A stretch of DNA of 7,301 nucleotides from a virus (IMGVR_UViG_2703718791_000006:1-7301), one strand, 5' to 3'; shown: positions 838-7,301, counted from the stretch's first letter. Made by a program: numbers and translations. The notes: generated by a model from the sequence alone, not told the origin.

Positions 838-1137
838 ATGAAACTTAAATATTCTGGCTTAACTGCCAGTGGCAACACTCACCCTAAATTTACGCGCGGT
901 GATATTTACCGCGACCAGTACGGCGGCACGGTAATGATTAAGGGCGTGGCGGGACGGTGCGTAACTTACCGCCGTGAAGGTTACGAATATGATTGCGTGA
1001 TGCCTGTTTATCAGTTCCGGCGTGATTTTTCTCTGGTACAGACCGCGCCGCATAACGTGCCCACCAGCAACGCCAGGGCACGGGCAAACATCCAGAAGCT
1101 GAAAACCATGATTAACGTATTCAGGGGTAAAAAATGA
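838..1137 (+). CDS. hypothetical protein, 99 aa
   Basis: ATG 838 preceded by GGAG (824-827). Stop TGA 1135-1137 overlaps the helicase ATG at 1134 (ATGA coupling). No family recognised. Confidence 0.55.
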   Translation: MKLKYSGLTASGNTHPKFTRGDIYRDQYGGTVMIKGVAGRCVTYRREGYEYDCVMPVYQFRRDFSLVQTAPHNVPTSNARARANIQKLKTMINVFRGKK

Positions 1138-2882
1138 AACTGGCACCGAACGTAAAAAAACAGCCACGCGGAATAAAACACAAAGACACAGAGGTAATTA
1201 TCTTTGCGGGTAGTGATGCCTGGTCGCACGCGAAACAATGGCAGGAGCAGGATGGCCCCGCATCCGGCGATAATGTGCCGCCTGTGTGGCTTGGGCCAAA
1301 GCAGCTTGCCGAACTTGATGCGCTGAAAATTGTTCCGGATGGGAAAAAGCGCGTAAGGCTGTACCAGGCCGGAGAACTAGATTTAGTGGAGACCAAAAAG
1401 ATTGGTCAGAAGCTGGCGGCGGCAGATATTCAGGACGCAAATTTTTACCACGAAGGAATGCACGTCCAGAAGTGTGAAAACTGGCGGCGCTATCTGAATG
1501 CTGAGCGTGAAAATATTGCCGCAGGGCTTACCATGCCGGAGCAGAAAAATACGCAACTGGCACAAATGGCAGACAGTGAGCGCGCACAGATGCTTGCTGG
1601 TCGATTTGATGGCGTTTGTGTGCATCCGGAAAGTGAAATCGTTCACGTATGGCGCGGCGGGGTATGGTGTCCGGTCAGCACAATGGAACTTAGCCGCGAA
1701 ATGGTGGCGATCTATTCAGAGCACAGGGCCACTTTCAGCAAGCGCGTAATCAATAACGCCGTGGAAGCGTTAAAAGTTATTGCCGAACCAATGGGCGAGC
1801 CGTCCGGCGATTTGCTGCCGTTCGCCAATGGTGCGCTTGACCTGAAAACGGGGGAATTTTCCCCGCACACGCCGGAGAACTGGATCACCACGCACAACGG
1901 CATTGAGTACACGCCACCAGCACCAGGGGAGAATATCCGCGACAACGCGCCAAACTTTCATAAATGGCTTGAGCACGCAGCCGGAAAAGACCCGCGCAAG
2001 ATGATGCGTATATGTGCCGCGCTGTACATGATTATGGCGAACCGGTACGACTGGCAGATGTTTATTGAGGCCACCGGAGACGGCGGGAGCGGTAAAAGTA
2101 CATTCACACACATAGCCAGCCTTCTGGCAGGGAAACAGAACACGGTAAGCGCTGAAATGACATCGCTTGATGATGCTGGTGGACGTGCGCAGGTTGTCGG
2201 GAGTCGTCTTATCGTCCTGGCTGACCAGCCGAAATATACAGGCGAAGGAACGGGCATCAAGAAAATCACGGGCGGCGACCCCGTGGAAATTAACCCGAAA
2301 TATGAGAAGCGTTTTACGGCGGTAATCAGGGCGGTGGTGCTGGCTACCAACAATAACCCGATGATATTCACCGAACGGGCCGGAGGTGTGTCACGTCGTC
2401 GCGTAATTTTCCGTTTCGACAATATCGTCAGTGAGGCCGAAAAAGACAGGGAGCTACCGGAAAAGATTGCGGCTGAAATCCCTGTCATTATCCGCCGATT
2501 GCTGGCGAACTTTACCGACCCTGAGAAGGCACGGGCTTTACTACTGGAACAGCGTGACGGTGATGAAGCTCTGGCAATAAAGCAACAGACGGATCCGGTT
2601 ATTGAGTTTTGCCAGTTCCTGAATTTTCTGGAGGAAGCACGCGGCCTGATGATGGGCGGCGGTGGCGATTCAGTGAAGTACACGACCAGGAACAGCCTTT
2701 ACCGCGTCTATCTGGCGTTTATGGCATACGCAGGCAGGAGCAAACCGCTAAACGTGGCTGAGTTCAGCAAGGCCATGAAGCCAGCGGCGAAAGTTTACGG
2801 GCATGAATATATTACGCGAAAAGTTAAGGGAGTAACGCAGACCAACGCAATTACAACAGACGATTGCGACGCGTTTTTATAA
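1134..2882 (+). CDS. replication protein: P4-alpha / D5-type superfamily-3 helicase (phage/plasmid primase C-terminal-domain family)
   Basis: 582-aa ORF with Walker A GDGGSGKST (about nt 2079-2105) and a Walker B-like hydrophobic run ending in Asp (RLIVLADQ) in a central NTPase region, flanked by N- and C-terminal extensions as in P4-alpha/D5-family proteins. Last gene of a coupled operon and immediately followed by an iteron array. Whether a primase domain is present cannot be settled by eye. Confidence 0.7.
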   Translation: MKLAPNVKKQPRGIKHKDTEVIIFAGSDAWSHAKQWQEQDGPASGDNVPPVWLGPKQLAELDALKIVPDGKKRVRLYQAGELDLVETKKIGQKLAAADIQDANFYHEGMHVQKCENWRRYLNAERENIAAGLTMPEQKNTQLAQMADSERAQMLAGRFDGVCVHPESEIVHVWRGGVWCPVSTMELSREMVAIYSEHRATFSKRVINNAVEALKVIAEPMGEPSGDLLPFANGALDLKTGEFSPHTPENWITTHNGIEYTPPAPGENIRDNAPNFHKWLEHAAGKDPRKMMRICAALYMIMANRYDWQMFIEATGDGGSGKSTFTHIASLLAGKQNTVSAEMTSLDDAGGRAQVVGSRLIVLADQPKYTGEGTGIKKITGGDPVEINPKYEKRFTAVIRAVVLATNNNPMIFTERAGGVSRRRVIFRFDNIVSEAEKDRELPEKIAAEIPVIIRRLLANFTDPEKARALLLEQRDGDEALAIKQQTDPVIEFCQFLNFLEEARGLMMGGGGDSVKYTTRNSLYRVYLAFMAYAGRSKPLNVAEFSKAMKPAAKVYGHEYITRKVKGVTQTNAITTDDCDAFL

Positions 2883-2895
2883 TTTTTTGTAAAAG

Positions 2896-3124
2896 CCCTC
2901 TACCCCATCTACCTGAATGAAATAAACGCATATTATTCAACATGATAAGTGGGTAGAGGGCTAGGTAGAAGGCTAATAAAAGCTCTCTACCTCTTCTACC
3001 TGATTTTATCAGTTTCAGGTAGCAGGGTAGACGGCAGGTAGAGGAGCCCAAAAAGCTATCTACCCGCTGAAAGCCGCGCCATTACTGACATGATGAGCAT
3101 TCGGGTAGATGGGTAGAGGGGGGG
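2896..3124. repeat. iteron array, candidate satellite replication origin
   Basis: Twelve copies of GGTAGA or its complement TCTACC, often inside a longer GGGTAGAGG core. Top strand GGTAGA at 2952, 2964, 3026, 3037, 3104, 3112 and GGTAGC at 3018; TCTACC at 2899, 2908, 2986, 2995, 3059. Copies occur in pairs or triplets 9-12 bp apart, in alternating orientation blocks, with AT-rich stretches at 2915-2950 and 3125-3160. Sits between the helicase and the ssb operon. Confidence 0.6.
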
Positions 3125-3165
3125 AGGCACAACTAAAAACTTTTTAAACGAGGGGGTGAAAATAA

Positions 3166-3480
3166 ATGCGCATACATCAAAATCACTTAACAAACATGCC
3201 AGCCGAAAACATGAATCAGGGGCGACAAATGACCAAAATTCGCAGAGACAGAACAGAGCCAAAATATAAAGCGTTAGACATGACTGAGCATACCTTAAAG
3301 GTGGCAATCAGAACGATAGACCGCCACACGCGGGAAGGATACGCGAAGGAACATCCCGACCTGATAAGCGCATTCATGACCACAGCGGCGGCAAACTTTG
3401 CCACGCTGACAGAACGGGAGATTGCCGAAGCGGAACAGGTAACAACCATCAACGTTAAAACCGGAGAGGTGGAATCATGA
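3166..3480 (+). CDS. hypothetical protein, 104 aa, coupled to ssb
   Basis: ATG 3166 about 8 nt downstream of AGGGGGTG. Stop TGA 3478-3480 overlaps the ssb ATG at 3477. Alternative internal starts exist. No family recognised. Confidence 0.5.
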   Translation: MRIHQNHLTNMPAENMNQGRQMTKIRRDRTEPKYKALDMTEHTLKVAIRTIDRHTREGYAKEHPDLISAFMTTAAANFATLTEREIAEAEQVTTINVKTGEVES

Positions 3481-3887
3481 CAGCACAGATAGCCGCTTAC
3501 GGGCGGCTGGTGGACGACCCGCAGGTAAAACAGACCAGCAAGGGCACACCGATGACGCTGGCGCGTATGGCGGTCCCCCTTCCGTGCAGCCAGGCAGATG
3601 ACGGAACGGCTACGTTATGGCTATCGGTGATGGCATTTGGTAAGCAGGCCGACTTCCTGGCTAAACATCAAAAAGGCGACGTTGCCAGCATATCTGGCGT
3701 GATGCAGATAAGCCAGTGGACCGGACAGAACGGGGAAACGCGGCAGGGTTATCAGGTTATTGCAGACAGCGTAATCAGTGCCCGTGCGGCACGTCCTGGC
3801 GGGAACAGACGCAAAACCACAGGCGCACAGGGTAATCAGCCACCAGCGGGAGACGATGACCCCTACGGTGATGATATTCCGTTCTGA
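3477..3887 (+). CDS. ssb: single-stranded DNA-binding protein (short OB-fold SSB with acidic C-terminal tail)
   Basis: 136 aa. N-terminus GRLVDDPQV resembles E. coli SSB GNLGQDPEV, and an aromatic/Gly-Lys OB-fold block (WLSVMAFGKQA versus WHRVVLFGKLA) follows. A Gly/Pro/Gln-rich linker ends in DDDPYGDDIPF, the canonical SSB tail. Good SD (GGAGAGGTGG) upstream. Confidence 0.85.
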   Translation: MTAQIAAYGRLVDDPQVKQTSKGTPMTLARMAVPLPCSQADDGTATLWLSVMAFGKQADFLAKHQKGDVASISGVMQISQWTGQNGETRQGYQVIADSVISARAARPGGNRRKTTGAQGNQPPAGDDDPYGDDIPF

Positions 3888-3895
3888 ACGCACAG

Positions 3896-3919
3896 GCCGG
3901 AGAAAATCCGGCTTTTTGT
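3896..3919 (+). terminator. rho-independent terminator after ssb
   Basis: GCCGGA-gaaaa-TCCGGC hairpin (6-bp GC-rich stem) followed by TTTTT, 9 nt after the ssb stop. Confidence 0.6.
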
Positions 3920-3923
3920 ACCC

Positions 3924-3970
3924 AAAAAAAGCCCGATAAGTACAGGAGGAAGCTTATCGGGCTTTTGCTT
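3924..3970. terminator. second, possibly bidirectional, terminator hairpin
   Basis: 10-bp stem GCCCGATAAG/CTTATCGGGC with a 12-nt loop, A-run upstream (3924-3930) and TTTTG downstream. Confidence 0.45.
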
Positions 3971-4040
3971 ACGAGGTTAACAGCATGGTGACTACTGTTG
4001 CTGTAAATCATTTCATAATTTGCAACACAACTCAATTTTA

Positions 4041-4091
4041 TTGCGCAAAATGCAATCATGATTATAATCATAACTGGATGAACATCCAGTT
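4041..4091 (+). promoter_or_regulatory. candidate sigma70 promoter with two palindromic operators ahead of the capsid operon
   Basis: -35 TTGCGC (4041-4046), 16-bp spacer, -10 TATAAT (4063-4068). Perfect 14-bp palindrome ATGATTATAATCAT (4058-4071) overlaps the -10. Perfect 9-2-9 inverted repeat AACTGGATG-AA-CATCCAGTT (4072-4091) lies just downstream. Confidence 0.45.
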
Positions 4092-4124
4092 GTGATTTTT
4101 TAAGTCAAAGAGGAATTTCTGACT

Positions 4125-4331
4125 ATGGCAGAAGAGAAAAAAGGCGGTGTTTCGGTGTACATAAGCCCCGAAATCGTGGAGGTGCTCAAGCAGCGCCACA
4201 AAAAAAACTATGAGGCTGGCGTAGCGGCTGGACTGGATCCGCTGATGACGCCGGAGCCGTCGATAGGTTCACTTGTGCGCTCTTATTTACTTGCGGCGCT
4301 TGGGATGCATAAAAATTATGGGGGTGAATAA
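4125..4331 (+). CDS. hypothetical small protein, 68 aa; possible ribbon-helix-helix DNA-binding protein
   Basis: N-terminal GGVSVYISPEIVEVLKQ fits a beta-strand plus helix pattern as in Arc/CopG-type RHH proteins, and a second helix SIGSLVRSYLLAALG follows. Stop TAA 4329-4331 overlaps the capsid ATG (TAATG). The fold assignment is a guess from sequence pattern only. Confidence 0.5.
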   Translation: MAEEKKGGVSVYISPEIVEVLKQRHKKNYEAGVAAGLDPLMTPEPSIGSLVRSYLLAALGMHKNYGGE

Positions 4332-5386
4332 TGGCAGGCAAAGCAACGGCACTTAACACTAACCAGCTTTTTGCGTACCTGAATCGCGGGGATATTGCGG
4401 AATTTAAATTTAGTCCGCTGTTTACCACGCTGTTTTTCCCGAAAGTAGCGACATTCAACACCCAAAACATCATGCTGGATAACCTGGACACCGAAGAAGT
4501 CACTATGTCAGCGTTTTGCTCGCCTATGGTTGGTAGCCAGGTACAGCGCGATAAAGGGTACGAAACCAGCACGATTAAACCTGGCTACATGAAGCCAAAG
4601 CACGAAATCGATCCAACAAAAACCATCATGCGCATGGCTGGAGAAGATCCGGCACAGCTTAACGACCCAACCTATCGCCGTATGCGCCTGATTACTGGCA
4701 ACATGCGCCGCCAGGTAAACGCTATTAAAGCGCGTGTTGAATGGCTGGCGGTAAATGCGGTAACGACCGGAAAAAACATCATTGAGGGCGAAGGCATAGA
4801 GCGCTATGAAATCGACTGGAAGATACCGGAAAAAAACATCATAGAGCAGGCCGACGGGAAAAAATGGTCAGAGCAGGACAAAGAAACCCACGATCCAATC
4901 TATGATATCGAACTATACGCCGATCAGGCTGGTTGCCCCGCAAACGTCATGATTATGGGCGCTGAGGTATGGCGAACGTTACGCAGCTTTAAAAAATTCC
5001 GTGAGCTGTACGATCTTTCCCGTGGTTCAGAGTCCGCCGCAGAGCTGGCCTGTAAAAACCTGGGCGAAGTGGTGAGCTTTAAAGGCTATCTGGGCGATAT
5101 TGCCCTTATCGTCTATTCCGGCAAATACGCCGACAGCGACGGCACCGAAAAACATTTCCTTGAGCCTGATTTGCTGGTCTTGGGCAACACCAACAATAAA
5201 GGGCTGGTTGCTTATGGTGCGATTATGGATCAGGAAGCGGTAAGAACGGGCGCAACGCAAAACATGTACTACCCGAAAAACTGGATTGAGGACGGCGATC
5301 CGGCGATTGAGTACGTGCAGACGCACAGCGCACCGCAGCCGGTGCCGGCAGACATTCGCAAATTTGTTACCGTCAAAATTGGTTAA
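4331..5386 (+). CDS. major capsid protein, lambda gpE family (HK97 fold)
   Basis: 351 aa, colinear over its full length with lambda gpE (341 aa) as recalled. Conserved blocks: FKFSPLF versus FKFDPLF; PGYMKPKHEIDP versus PGYVKPKHEVNP; DPTYRRMRLITGNMR versus DPAYRRRRIIMQNMR; RGSESAAELACKNLGEVVSFKGYLGDIALIVYSGKY versus RGSNSELETAVKDLGKAVSYKGMYGDVAIVVYSGQY; YPKNWIEDGDPAIEY versus YPKNWVTTGDPAREF. SD GGGGTGA upstream. Confidence 0.9.
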   Translation: MAGKATALNTNQLFAYLNRGDIAEFKFSPLFTTLFFPKVATFNTQNIMLDNLDTEEVTMSAFCSPMVGSQVQRDKGYETSTIKPGYMKPKHEIDPTKTIMRMAGEDPAQLNDPTYRRMRLITGNMRRQVNAIKARVEWLAVNAVTTGKNIIEGEGIERYEIDWKIPEKNIIEQADGKKWSEQDKETHDPIYDIELYADQAGCPANVMIMGAEVWRTLRSFKKFRELYDLSRGSESAAELACKNLGEVVSFKGYLGDIALIVYSGKYADSDGTEKHFLEPDLLVLGNTNNKGLVAYGAIMDQEAVRTGATQNMYYPKNWIEDGDPAIEYVQTHSAPQPVPADIRKFVTVKIG

Positions 5387-5397
5387 CGGGGGATTCT

Positions 5398-5733
5398 ATG
5401 AACACTCCATACATTGAGTTATTTGCAGGCAGTCAGCAGGTATCCACGACGCTGGTACATTTTGCCGCTGATGCTGGCGTCATTCAGGAATTTACCCCGC
5501 TGATGCTGGCGGACAATGGCGAGTTTAAGCCGTGGGATGGTCAGGCGTCCGGAAAGGCTGTTTATCTGACTTCGTACCCCGTGGACACGTCAAAGCAGAA
5601 ATCAGCACAGTGCTACAAGACGGGGATCTTTAATATCGCCGCCGTGAACTGGCCCGAGAGCGTCGACACCGATGCGAAAAAATGCGCCGCCTTTGCGGGT
5701 TCTGGCGTATCCGTTCAGCCGCTGGCCCGATAA
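5398..5733 (+). CDS. head decoration protein, lambda gpD family
   Basis: 111 aa versus gpD 110 aa. Shared blocks: TPLMLAD / TPLMLD, WDG, YKTGIFN..WPE / YKSGTF..WPE, KKCAAFAGSG / KKRTAFAGT. SD GGGGGAT upstream. Gene order is capsid then decoration, the reverse of lambda's D then E. Confidence 0.8.
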   Translation: MNTPYIELFAGSQQVSTTLVHFAADAGVIQEFTPLMLADNGEFKPWDGQASGKAVYLTSYPVDTSKQKSAQCYKTGIFNIAAVNWPESVDTDAKKCAAFAGSGVSVQPLAR

Positions 5734-5745
5734 GCAGGGGGAACG

Positions 5746-6159
5746 ATGGCAACGAATGAAAGCATCATGACGCTACCGCTGGCGAGTAAATTTAAAGCCG
5801 AAGCGCGAGCAATGGCTGACAGAGGTTTATCAACCTACGAGGCCGTATATCAACTCAACAAACTGGAAGAGCAGGACAAGCCGCGCGCTGATGCGATTAT
5901 GGCGCTTCATGAGCATAACGACTATCAGCCGCTGTTACGTGCAATGGCAAACGTGCCTTGTATCGATGTTGGTACGGCTAAAAGCATCCTTAGCATGACC
6001 ATAGAGCAGGAACGCCAGAAGGTTGCGCCGGAGCTTACCGCAGCCTTTGAAAACTTTATGGACATGCACAGCCCGCAAGCCGTTTCAGCTGGCATGGCAT
6101 ACGACGGCAGAAACCCGGGCGATGATGGCGACATCGAGCGCATACTGAAAACCATCTGA
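5746..6159 (+). CDS. hypothetical protein, 137 aa, last gene of the capsid operon
   Basis: Strong SD AGGGGGA before ATG 5746 and a terminator directly after the stop. No convincing similarity to lambda FI, FII or Nu3 as recalled. Confidence 0.6.
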   Translation: MATNESIMTLPLASKFKAEARAMADRGLSTYEAVYQLNKLEEQDKPRADAIMALHEHNDYQPLLRAMANVPCIDVGTAKSILSMTIEQERQKVAPELTAAFENFMDMHSPQAVSAGMAYDGRNPGDDGDIERILKTI

Positions 6160-6165
6160 GACAAG

Positions 6166-6188
6166 GCCGGAGAAATCCGGCTTTTTTT
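6166..6188 (+). terminator. rho-independent terminator after the capsid operon, abutting cosQ
   Basis: GCCGGA-gaaa-TCCGGC hairpin followed by TTTTTTT. Near-identical to the terminator at 3896-3919. Confidence 0.6.
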
Positions 6189-6265
6189 ACGGGTCCTTTC
6201 CGGCATATGGACCCGTTACGGGGCGGCGACCTCGCGGTTTTTCGCTATTTATGACGTTTTTCCGT
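6187..6265 (+). other. lambda-type cos site, copy 1 (cosQ, cosN, I2-like proximal cosB)
   Basis: TTTACGGGTCCTTTCCGG (6187-6204) matches the lambda right-end cosQ region. GGGCGGCGACCT (6221-6232) is identical to the lambda 12-nt cohesive end, and the 17-bp spacing between them is kept. The following CGCGGTTTTTCGCTATTTATGA closely matches the lambda left end CGCGGGTTTTCGCTATTTATGA. No ATGTCCGGTT-type repeats before the terS start. Confidence 0.75.
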
Positions 6266-6269
6266 GAAG

Positions 6270-6296
6270 GTGACACCACCACCACTTGATTAATAT
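6270..6296 (+). promoter_or_regulatory. weak candidate promoter for the small terminase gene
   Basis: GTGACA (6270-6275), about 15-bp spacer, TAATAT (6291-6296). The alternative TTGATT (6286-6291) has a poor -10. Low confidence. Confidence 0.25.
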
Positions 6297-6321
6297 TTAA
6301 CCATGTAGTTAAGGTAACATT

Positions 6322-6756
6322 ATGATTGATAAAGCTTGTTTTGTAAGTCAGCAGGAAATAGCTGAACATTTCAAGGTTAACAGAACCACTATTCGCGCAT
6401 GGACCAAACAGGGGATGCCGTATCTTAATGCGGATCGCGGAAAGTCCGGCGGTTATCACATCGGGCATACATTGCTTTGGTCTTCAGGTAAAAGCCATCT
6501 TGAGGCCATTGGATATCACGTAGAAACCAGTGCGCTGGAAAAAATTATGTTTGCCAGGCTGCTTTCATCTGAGCGTGACGAGTACTCCAGTGAAGAAACA
6601 GAACATCGATTTGATGAAGGTTTGCAGATTTACGGATATTCACCGGAAGATGTGAGCAAGGCACGAAATAAAATGGCTGGCTTTCTGGCTGGGTGGCGTC
6701 ATGCCGTAAGCGTTCGCCGTGCCAGCATGGAGCAATCAGCCGATACAGAACAGTAA
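6322..6756 (+). CDS. small terminase-like protein, phage Nu1 family (N-terminal winged-HTH DNA-binding domain)
   Basis: 144 aa. N-terminus SQQEIAEHFKVNRTTIRAWTKQGMPYL parallels lambda Nu1 KKQLADIFGASIRTIQNWQEQGMPVL. It is shorter than Nu1 (181 aa) and diverges after the HTH. It sits about 90 bp downstream of the cos copy 1 cohesive end, where lambda has Nu1. Confidence 0.75.
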   Translation: MIDKACFVSQQEIAEHFKVNRTTIRAWTKQGMPYLNADRGKSGGYHIGHTLLWSSGKSHLEAIGYHVETSALEKIMFARLLSSERDEYSSEETEHRFDEGLQIYGYSPEDVSKARNKMAGFLAGWRHAVSVRRASMEQSADTEQ

Positions 6757-6824
6757 AGCCGATAACTTGTTAATCACTCGCAGCAATGCATGTGATTTGT
6801 GCACACTTTCGGTTAACTGGTTCG

Positions 6825-6921
6825 ATGTCCGGTTTTAGTGTCTGTTTTTTGCGCATGTCCGGTTCATGGAAAGCATGTTTTTATATTTTTCATATGGTTA
6901 ACTTGCAGAGAAACCGGACAT
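6825..6921. repeat. three 10-bp ATGTCCGGTT repeats in a cosB-like R-I-R-R layout (candidate small-terminase binding sites)
   Basis: ATGTCCGGTT at 6825-6834 and 6855-6864 on the top strand and inverted (AACCGGACAT) at 6912-6921, with an AT-rich stretch (about 6876-6896) between the direct pair and the inverted copy. GGTTAACT also recurs at 6810 and 6895. Lies between the terS stop and the inverted cohesive-end sequence. Confidence 0.5.
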
Positions 6922-6924
6922 GGA

Positions 6925-7003
6925 TCCCGAAAAATTTTCATAAATAGTGAAAACGCGCGAGGTCGCCGCCCCGTAACGGGCCATAATTCCAGGAAGGACC
7001 CGA
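6925..7003 (-). other. second lambda-type cos site, inverted (cosQ-like, cosN, I2-like)
   Basis: Bottom strand reads CGGGTCCTTCCTGG..CGTTACG-GGGCGGCGACCT-CGCGCGTTTTCACTATTTATGAAAATTTTT. The cohesive-end 12-mer occupies 6960-6971 on the minus strand. 6956-6980 is a perfect 25-bp inverted repeat of 6212-6236, with imperfect similarity continuing on both sides. The cosQ-like element differs from lambda at a few positions. Confidence 0.65.
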
Positions 7004-7035
7004 CGACACCAGGCTATCAGAACGATGGGGGCACA

Positions 7036-7301
7036 ATGACAGAAGCCGAACTACTGCGATTAATCCGCCGCGTTACCGGAATCAGCCAGCAGCATGACGA
7101 ACAGGGCACGCAACCGGACAGCGTGACCGCTGAAAATTATGCGCGTGTTGTTGCTGAGGTGATGCGCCGTGATGGTATTGAGCTTAACGGCGTGGATATG
7201 CGCAACATACGAACCAGAGTCCTTGAGTTGCTGGCATACCGTCGCCGCGTGGAGATGTATCGGGAGAAGGAGAAAATCACGTACCACTGGAAGAAGCCGG
7301 A
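7036..7301 (+). CDS. 5' part of an ORF running off the right edge; product unknown
   Basis: ATG 7036 preceded by GATGGGGG, open in frame 1 to the window end (MTEAELLRLIRRVTGISQQHDEQ...). Not in the ORF track because it has no stop in window. No match to the lambda gpA N-terminus; resemblance to the lambda FI N-terminus is too weak to call. Confidence 0.45.
   Translation, partial: MTEAELLRLIRRVTGISQQHDEQGTQPDSVTAENYARVVAEVMRRDGIELNGVDMRNIRTRVLELLAYRRRVEMYREKEKITYHWKKP

Follow-up and report, generated by a model that had tools for sequence, protein, structure and literature searches.

The 7301 nt stretch of viral DNA analysed here (IMGVR_UViG_2703718791_000006:1-7301, referred to as the window) is, judged by its genes and by its similarity to known islands, a close relative of EcCICFT073, the model phage-inducible chromosomal island (PICI) of Gram-negative bacteria. 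Two nearly identical hairpins, T1 and T2, stand on either side of its four-gene capsid module, T1 behind the ssb gene and T2 in front of the packaging site cos1 (coordinates in Table 1). They are probably copies of one family-specific rho-independent terminator which closes each gene cassette in the right half of these islands, and which most likely also provides a short homology for the exchange of cassettes.

The terminator repeat around the capsid module

T1 (ACAGGCCGGAGAAAATCCGGCTTTTTGT) extends from 3892 to 3919 and T2 (ACAAGGCCGGAGAAATCCGGCTTTTTTTAC) from 6161 to 6190. An initial annotation of the window had described a near-identical terminator repeat on both sides of the capsid block, and this repeat is real. 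A repeat search of the window returned the pair as direct repeat D12 (3894-3917 / 6164-6187). About 26 of 29 columns of the T1/T2 alignment are identical, with two indels of 1 nt each. The common 11-mer GGCCGGAGAAA occurs twice where 0.01 occurrences are expected, and a count of two was reached in none of 200 shuffled sequences. The coordinates proposed for the second copy were exact; those for the first, which had been placed at 3891, began one base early.

Both copies fold more stably than shuffled sequences, with -14.2 kcal/mol for T1 (z-score -2.9) and -17.7 kcal/mol for T2 (z-score -4.1). The core stem consists of six pairs, five of them G-C, and carries the loop GAAAA in T1 and GAAA in T2. 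A run of uridines (U-run) follows straight 3' of the stem, T5 in T1 and T7 in T2. Both hairpins lie on the coding strand, the stem of T1 beginning 6 nt past the stop codon of ssb and that of T2 3 nt past the stop codon of ORF137 (ORF, open reading frame). Stem, U-run and placement characterize T1 and T2 as canonical intrinsic (rho-independent) terminators, termination itself being predicted. A simple consensus terminator scan of the window listed neither of them. We think that this is a false negative produced by the tool, as its greedy stem extension consumes the first U residues. Rfam covariance models did not match the window at E-values up to 1.

The U-run of T2 stops 2 nt short of the motif GGGTCCT (6191-6197), which we take to be cosQ, the motif GGGCGGCGACCT at 6221-6232 being presumably cosN (both names follow those used in lambda). 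Lambdoid phages are homologous to the window from about 6184 onward, within the T-run, in agreement with the earlier description of a second copy running directly into cosQ. As this homology begins only after the stem, a phage origin of the hairpin was rejected. The exact hairpin was not found in a phage genome collection, which yielded only weak, imperfect matches.

One stretch inside the capsid gene (4619-4653, AAAACCATCATGCGCATGGCTGGAGAAGATCCGGC) resembles the end of ORF137 together with T2 (6148-6181, AAAACCATCTGAGACAAGGCCGGAGAAATCCGGC), with 74% identity over 27 nt without gaps. The likeness is probably due to chance, because the stretch is coding and is found also in two related islands (L001 and L005).

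One hairpin at the cassette junctions of an island family

A megablast search of 5426 complete Escherichia coli genomes found islands related to the window in 2303 of them, with a median of two and up to 12 matching places per genome. The best match (L001, 97% identical) is an island of about 11 kb which interrupts tqsA and carries an integrase and a helix-turn-helix regulator; the PICI hallmarks present in the window itself are the primase, iterons, cos1, cos2 and rppA. The window is 93.6% identical in DNA sequence to the CFT073 island (L008) over 3891-7301, and the RppA proteins have 142 of 144 residues in common; the replication block is more diverged (87.6%). Both islands contain primase, ssb, capsid E, decoration D, ORF137, cos1, rppA, the inverted cos2 and a last small ORF in the same order, and they have the same T2 and the same terminator ahead of the capsid module. 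Unlike EcCICFT073, the window lacks perC, and its left terminator follows right after ssb and has a pentaloop.

EcCICFT073 encodes homologues of capsid (c1499) and decoration protein (c1500) and has a pair of cos sites, the essential one being cos1 (Fillol-Salom et al. 2018, 2019; PMC6092414, PMC6739421). Its RppA, a protein of 144 residues, binds the small terminase of the helper phage and redirects it to cos1 of the island (PMC6739421, PMC6092414). That a helper phage induces an island of this type and transfers it at high frequency has been shown experimentally for EcCICFT073 only (PMC6092414, PMC6739421). A term search found the word 'terminator' in neither of these two papers, and our literature search returned no description of the hairpin as a boundary of cassettes throughout the family.

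Marker genes, hairpins and cos sites were mapped in a set of 93 islands (L001-L012, L133-L212 and the window), 80 of which were fetched via the ssb gene. All 11 E. coli islands that were fetched first contain GCCGGAG-N-AA(A)-TCCGGC followed by T5-T8, in one to three copies and always just past a stop codon. In the full set there are 165 copies, all of them on the plus strand and between ssb and orf93 (428 kb). The remaining 548 kb of these 93 loci contain no copy, and none was found on the minus strand.

The cassettes follow a common order: ssb, optionally perC, the hairpin, optionally orf225 with a further hairpin, and then the capsid module, each cassette ending in the hairpin. Behind the same replication backbone, the slot after ssb may hold a lambda E/D-type module, a full HK97 module or a ClpP-protease/capsid fusion. 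The first type, that of the window, consists of a small gene which the initial annotation had labelled RHH (ribbon-helix-helix), mcpE, deco and orf137, followed by the hairpin, cos, either rppA or a terS-like gene, an inverted cos and orf93. The second is the HK97 capsid-to-terminase module of capsid-forming PICIs (cf-PICIs). In the third lineage, ssb and the hairpin are followed by cos, the fusion gene, another terminator and again cos.

The hairpin stands 44 times between orf137 and cos and 33 times between perC and orf225. It connects perC as well as orf225 to the RHH gene (21 times each) and to the HK97 module (16 and 15 times respectively). The junction type of the window, ssb to RHH, was encountered nine times, and ssb to cos twice. 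The hairpin has four main upstream and four main downstream classes of partners, in eight main combinations. In most relatives it is perC or orf225, and not ssb, that stands ahead of the hairpin preceding the capsid module. Contrary to what had been supposed, the pair does not mark off the capsid module specifically, since the hairpin follows perC and orf225 as well and islands hold one to three copies.

The stems are nearly invariant. Variation is concentrated at position N of the GNAA tetraloop (A in 83 copies, C in 65 and T in nine, plus nine pentaloops), a pattern which would be expected of a constrained tetraloop hairpin. The core of T2 is identical in all 44 junctions of ORF137 to cos, and the ssb-linked pentaloop allele of the T1 type occurs in nine islands and in a further locus, L214. 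Some terminator is present ahead of cos in every lineage examined, and L007 and L214 use a different terminator stem before cos2.

In the sister lineage, the ClpP-protease/major-capsid fusion gene lies between two direct copies (about 75 nt) of a different cos type: 4614-4700 and 7157-7229 in L007, 8881-8960 and 11417-11489 in L010, and approximately 3470-3545 and 6010-6085 in L214. The first of these copies comes after ssb and the family hairpin, the second after the terminator with a different stem.

The hairpin is specific to these islands within E. coli. A query of 37 nt (T2 with short flanks) matched 787 of the 5426 genomes, at one to five places each. Two of these matches were fetched and both lie within islands, one of them in a region labelled 'trigger factor', which is a mis-annotated pseudogene inside the island. 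A generic host terminator, the observation which the initial annotation had named as speaking against its proposal, is ruled out by these figures and by the flanking DNA, which is free of copies. Host palindromes of the REP/BIME type (repetitive extragenic palindromes and bacterial interspersed mosaic elements), which occur in hundreds of dispersed copies, are ruled out by the same genome counts and by the same copy-free flanking DNA.

We propose that the terminator design of the family, a 6 bp GCCGGA/TCCGGC stem with a GNAA tetraloop and a U-run, would act as follows. T1 would end the replication operon, which extends from the primase gene to ssb. Past it, a second predicted terminator (3927-3966) and a control region would mark the start of a capsid operon under independent control. 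T2 would end this operon 2 nt ahead of cosQ and may thus keep transcription out of the packaging site. Termination before cos appears to be the selected function, because all lineages examined have a terminator at this place, with a different stem ahead of cos2 in L007 and L214. Cassettes would be gained, lost and re-paired by recombination at the hairpin when co-resident or tandem islands meet, with a second exchange in conserved genes or sites such as ssb, cos or orf93.

Module exchange after ssb

The relation of the hairpin to its surroundings was analysed for 57 distinct junctions by gapped identity over 40 nt on each side (this replaced an ungapped test which was confounded by the length of the T-run). 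Junctions with the same upstream and a different downstream partner have an identity of 0.75 upstream and 0.50 downstream; those with a different upstream and the same downstream partner have 0.62 and 0.88 respectively. The background for unrelated flanks is about 0.55 upstream and about 0.53 downstream. Homology on the two sides of the hairpin is independent, and the hairpin is the sole sequence common to these junctions. It coincides with every junction of alternative modules because no other sequence is common to the otherwise unrelated cassettes.

Alignments of the window to L002, L003, L005, L008 and L009 break at 3887, the stop codon of ssb. In L005 and L008 the alignment restarts at 3891-3896, at the start of T1; the other three have no homologue downstream. 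The ssb gene of the window and its pentaloop hairpin allele match L214, and the sequence past the T-run matches CFT073 and O157 islands at the left end of their capsid module. The window looks like a recombinant in which ssb and hairpin of the L214 type are joined to a right flank of the CFT073 type at the U-run, and crossovers may lie within the hairpin. The 5' flank, the loop base and the 3' flank assort in many combinations, which homoplasy of the loop or illegitimate joining would fit too. L003 (1-20337) contains two cf-PICIs in tandem at one attachment site, the shared features of which have identical protein accessions; tandem islands of this kind would favour unequal recombination between cassettes.

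Relatives without a capsid module, which the initial annotation had suggested looking for, do exist. L147 (6806-7077) has the order ssb, hairpin, cos, 190 bp and orf93, and lacks a capsid gene. L213 (E. coli S19-651; 8392-8652) and one further complete genome have ssb, perC, hairpin, cos and orf93. In L214, the ssb end and the pentaloop allele of the window itself are joined directly to a cos-like sequence. These relatives carry a cos type different from that of the window. Islands of the L147/L213 type contain neither capsid nor rpp nor terS gene, and their layout was seen in just two of the 5426 complete E. coli genomes.

The proposal of modular acquisition, in which the capsid module had been inserted or duplicated between ssb and cos by recombination at the terminator, is thereby borne out in part. 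The slot after ssb is a site of module exchange, with the hairpin at the junctions and with relatives that lack the capsid genes; the module may have been gained or lost, and there is no indication of its duplication. Composition had been suggested as a further test. The GC content of the capsid block (0.50-0.545) is close to that of the replication block (0.53-0.54), GC3 (GC content at third codon positions) is similar, and the distance between the dinucleotide signatures of the two blocks (delta* = 0.041) is lower than the values within the blocks. A foreign origin of the capsid block has no signal in any of the three measures and was rejected as far as composition can indicate it.

In its strict form, the proposal would make T1 and T2 the duplicated target or attachment sequence left by a single insertion of a capsid element between ssb and cos. 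Direct repeats on either side of the module, a single hairpin before cos in the capsid-less relatives and the capsid gene between direct cos repeats in the sister lineage speak in its favour. We consider it very unlikely. A synthetic query combining the ssb end, T2 and cos1, the product of a simple deletion between T1 and T2, was covered to at least 80% at no place in the 5426 genomes, so that none of them contains an empty site corresponding to this combination of ssb and cos type. The capsid block contains neither a recombinase nor a transposase according to the ORF list and Pfam, and its composition is indistinguishable from that of the rest of the island. T1 and T2 differ by indels and carry alleles specific to their upstream genes. 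The variable copy number of the hairpin, its presence behind perC and orf225 and the position of most left copies behind these genes rather than ssb likewise speak against an insertion footprint.

Several results weigh against the preferred reading of a shared terminator that also serves in cassette exchange. Changes in the stem are rare single mismatches, none of them compensatory, and covariation lends no support to the structure. The homology at the hairpin comprises only 16-25 nt, which is at or below the minimum for efficient RecA-dependent recombination of about 23-27 bp. The loop variant tracks mostly the upstream gene, with orf137 always having GAAA and orf225 mostly GCAA. Because the loop allele behaves in this way, the data also fit an alternative in which each cassette carries its own terminator and the junctions arose by illegitimate recombination with later selection; this is possible.

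Gene linkage belongs to the same side of the balance. The pairwise nucleotide identities of seven island genes in the 93 islands are almost uncorrelated (Spearman coefficients from -0.21 to 0.34), even for neighbours in an operon, which indicates very frequent allelic recombination all over the island, with no restriction to the terminator. The identities of ssb and mcpE are uncorrelated (rho 0.11), and this low linkage was considered as evidence for a recombination hotspot at the hairpin. It was dropped, as genes inside the capsid module are barely correlated too (rho 0.05-0.34); low linkage across the hairpin is not specific to it because allelic recombination is pervasive.

The last of these points concerns the hairpin as such. 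The exact 21 nt hairpin with T-run (GCCGGAGMAATCCGGCTTTTT) is found in at least 120 unrelated genomes across phyla, the matches listed including Bacteroidota, Bacillota and diverse Pseudomonadota. The bare hairpin appears to be a low-information sequence which can arise by convergence, and the argument for common descent therefore rests on its context and not on the hairpin alone. T1 and T2 might then be independent look-alikes drawn from the small sequence space of GC-rich stem, GNRA loop and U-run, and their repetition would carry no information on history. GCCGGA/TCCGGC stems with other loops do occur nearby, for example in L007 and L010. The context makes this explanation highly improbable: within E. 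coli the hairpin is restricted to islands of this family, its 165 copies lie in one island half on one strand with a nearly invariant stem, and chance predicts only 0.01 occurrences in the window of the 11-mer which T1 and T2 have in common. The other stem before cos2 in L007 and L214 implies that function does not force this particular sequence.

Conservation of the stem across cassettes exceeds the need of termination alone, which could be explained by regulation. The terminators might be kept identical since a factor of the island or the helper phage recognizes or bypasses them, for example a processive antiterminator loaded at the early promoter. Under this view, the replication, accessory and capsid cassettes would stay silent before induction, after which read-through would make them a single unit. 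We give little credence to this explanation. Processive antiterminators generally need no specific terminator sequence, and the second strong terminator and the separate control region past T1 suggest an independent promoter for the capsid genes. In its favour, the islands encode an AlpA-type regulator which acts as their inducer (PMC6092414), and a Pseudomonas aeruginosa protein of the name AlpA is a processive antiterminator, allowing transcription to pass intrinsic terminators (PMC7969949, PMC9371919). No connection between the two AlpA proteins was found in the P. aeruginosa papers.

A more far-reaching version of the exchange model sees the hairpin as a dedicated, homogenized element of 'portable homology' responsible for the shuffling of cassettes between co-resident satellites of E. 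coli, its identity being kept by gene conversion or by a recombination or antitermination factor of island or helper. We regard this version as rather unlikely. If it were true, shuffling would include the switch between a lifestyle of packaging hijack by cos and Rpp and the capsid-forming lifestyle of the cf-PICIs.

Gene map and comparison with known systems

The features of the window are listed in Table 1. Pfam supports the earlier labels of capsid E, decoration D and single-stranded DNA-binding protein; the label 'RHH' for the 68-residue ORF has no such support, this ORF and ORF137 being without a match in the Pfam search.

Table 1. Features of the window (positions in nt; predicted features are marked as such).
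Feature	Position	Strand	Description
Primase gene, replication operon	1134-2882		D5-type primase (Pfam)
ORF104, replication operon	3166-3480		
ssb, last gene of replication operon	3477-3887	+	PF00436 SSB, 3.5e-15; relatives annotated as single-stranded DNA-binding protein
T1, predicted intrinsic terminator	3892-3919	+	core GCCGGA-GAAAA-TCCGGC 3896-3912, U-run 3913-3917
Second terminator, predicted, bidirectional	3927-3966		15 bp stem, A-run left, T-run right; -22.1 kcal/mol, z-score -4.8
AT-rich control region of capsid operon, presumed promoter/operators	3967-4124	+	palindromes including 4066-4097 (inverted repeat I25)
68-residue ORF ('RHH'), first gene of capsid module	4125-4331	+	ORF list; kept ahead of capsid gene in relatives
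Homologue of lambda gpE-type major capsid protein (c1499 type of EcCICFT073)	4331-5386	+	PF03864, 2.2e-52; PMC6092414
Homologue of lambda gpD-type head decoration protein (c1500 type)	5398-5733	+	PF02924, 5.6e-18; PMC6092414
ORF137, last gene of capsid module	5746-6159	+	ORF list
T2, predicted intrinsic terminator	6161-6190	+	core GCCGGA-GAAA-TCCGGC 6166-6181, U-run 6182-6188
cos1, lambda type	6189-6267	+	GGGTCCT 6191-6197, GGGCGGCGACCT 6221-6232; homology to lambdoid phages from about 6184
rppA, protein redirecting phage packaging	6322-6756	+	142/144 identical to EcCICFT073 protein
cos2, inverted copy of cos1	6925-7002	-	inverted repeat I1, 78 nt, 81% complementary; PMC6092414, PMC6739421

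The second terminator forms the left end of the capsid module and comes after the hairpin in all RHH-module junctions fetched or aligned (flank cccaaaaaaagcccg). The control region behind it contains several palindromes, including AATCATAACTGGATG/CATCCAGTTGTGATT, which are candidate operators or a candidate attenuator for the capsid operon. A promoter scan of this region revealed no convincing sigma-70 promoter on the plus strand and only weak promoter-like matches on the minus strand.

Just 3' of the primase gene, at 2890-3125, lie iteron-like direct and inverted repeats (TAAAAGCyCTCTACCyCTTCTACCTGA, GGGTAGA/TCTACC motifs), which coincide with the place reported for the replication origin of PICIs. 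ORF137 adjoins cos1, and its homologues are labelled 'phage head-tail connector protein' in some RefSeq genomes. The inverted 78 nt repeat (6190-6267 / 6925-7002) is the published pair of cos1 and cos2 of EcCICFT073, which flanks rppA. The gene between the inverted cos copies is swapped among islands, being rppA, a 543 nt 'terminase small subunit' gene or none of the marker set. Because the enclosed gene differs among islands, the inverted cos pair brackets another exchangeable cassette.

Short conserved boundary sequences at the mosaic junctions of phages are an established idea, as a passage of PMC3029335 records (citing Susskind and Botstein 1978; Clark et al. 2001). Like these linkers, the hairpin is short, common to non-homologous modules and placed at mosaic junctions with many upstream and downstream combinations. 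It differs from them in having the appearance of a functional terminator, in residing on a satellite island and in occurring at essentially every cassette junction of one island half; most phage junctions lack boundary sequences (PMC3029335). A second comparison is offered by morons, accessory phage genes inserted together with their own promoter and terminator, as outlined in that source (PMC3029335). Like morons, the capsid block and the cassettes of orf225 and perC are optional and end in a terminator, and the capsid block seems to possess a control region of its own. Unlike morons, all cassettes use the same terminator, and the capsid block is a structural module of four genes.

The cf-PICIs (bioRxiv 10.1101/2022.09.08.507074) have the left half (primase, ssb, perC) in common with the present family and use its terminator behind perC or orf225, and their HK97 capsid-to-terminase module occupies the slot of the E/D module of the window. 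The window differs from them in having only capsid E, decoration D and two small ORFs, plus cos and rppA, and no protease, portal, connectors or terminase. In the light of these comparisons, the hairpin is an ordinary terminator which serves as a boundary sequence throughout a known family of islands, and does not represent a novel type of system.

Virulence and defence genes are among the cargo that phage satellites spread, and the assembly of the gene sets of these satellites is only partly understood. In islands of the EcCICFT073 type, one terminator of about 22 nt marks every junction of alternative cassettes, including the point at which cos-type and capsid-forming islands diverge. It is a concrete candidate for the recombination site behind the modularity of these satellites. 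It also provides a simple landmark for delimiting cassettes in the annotation of islands and a natural splice point for the engineering of synthetic ones.

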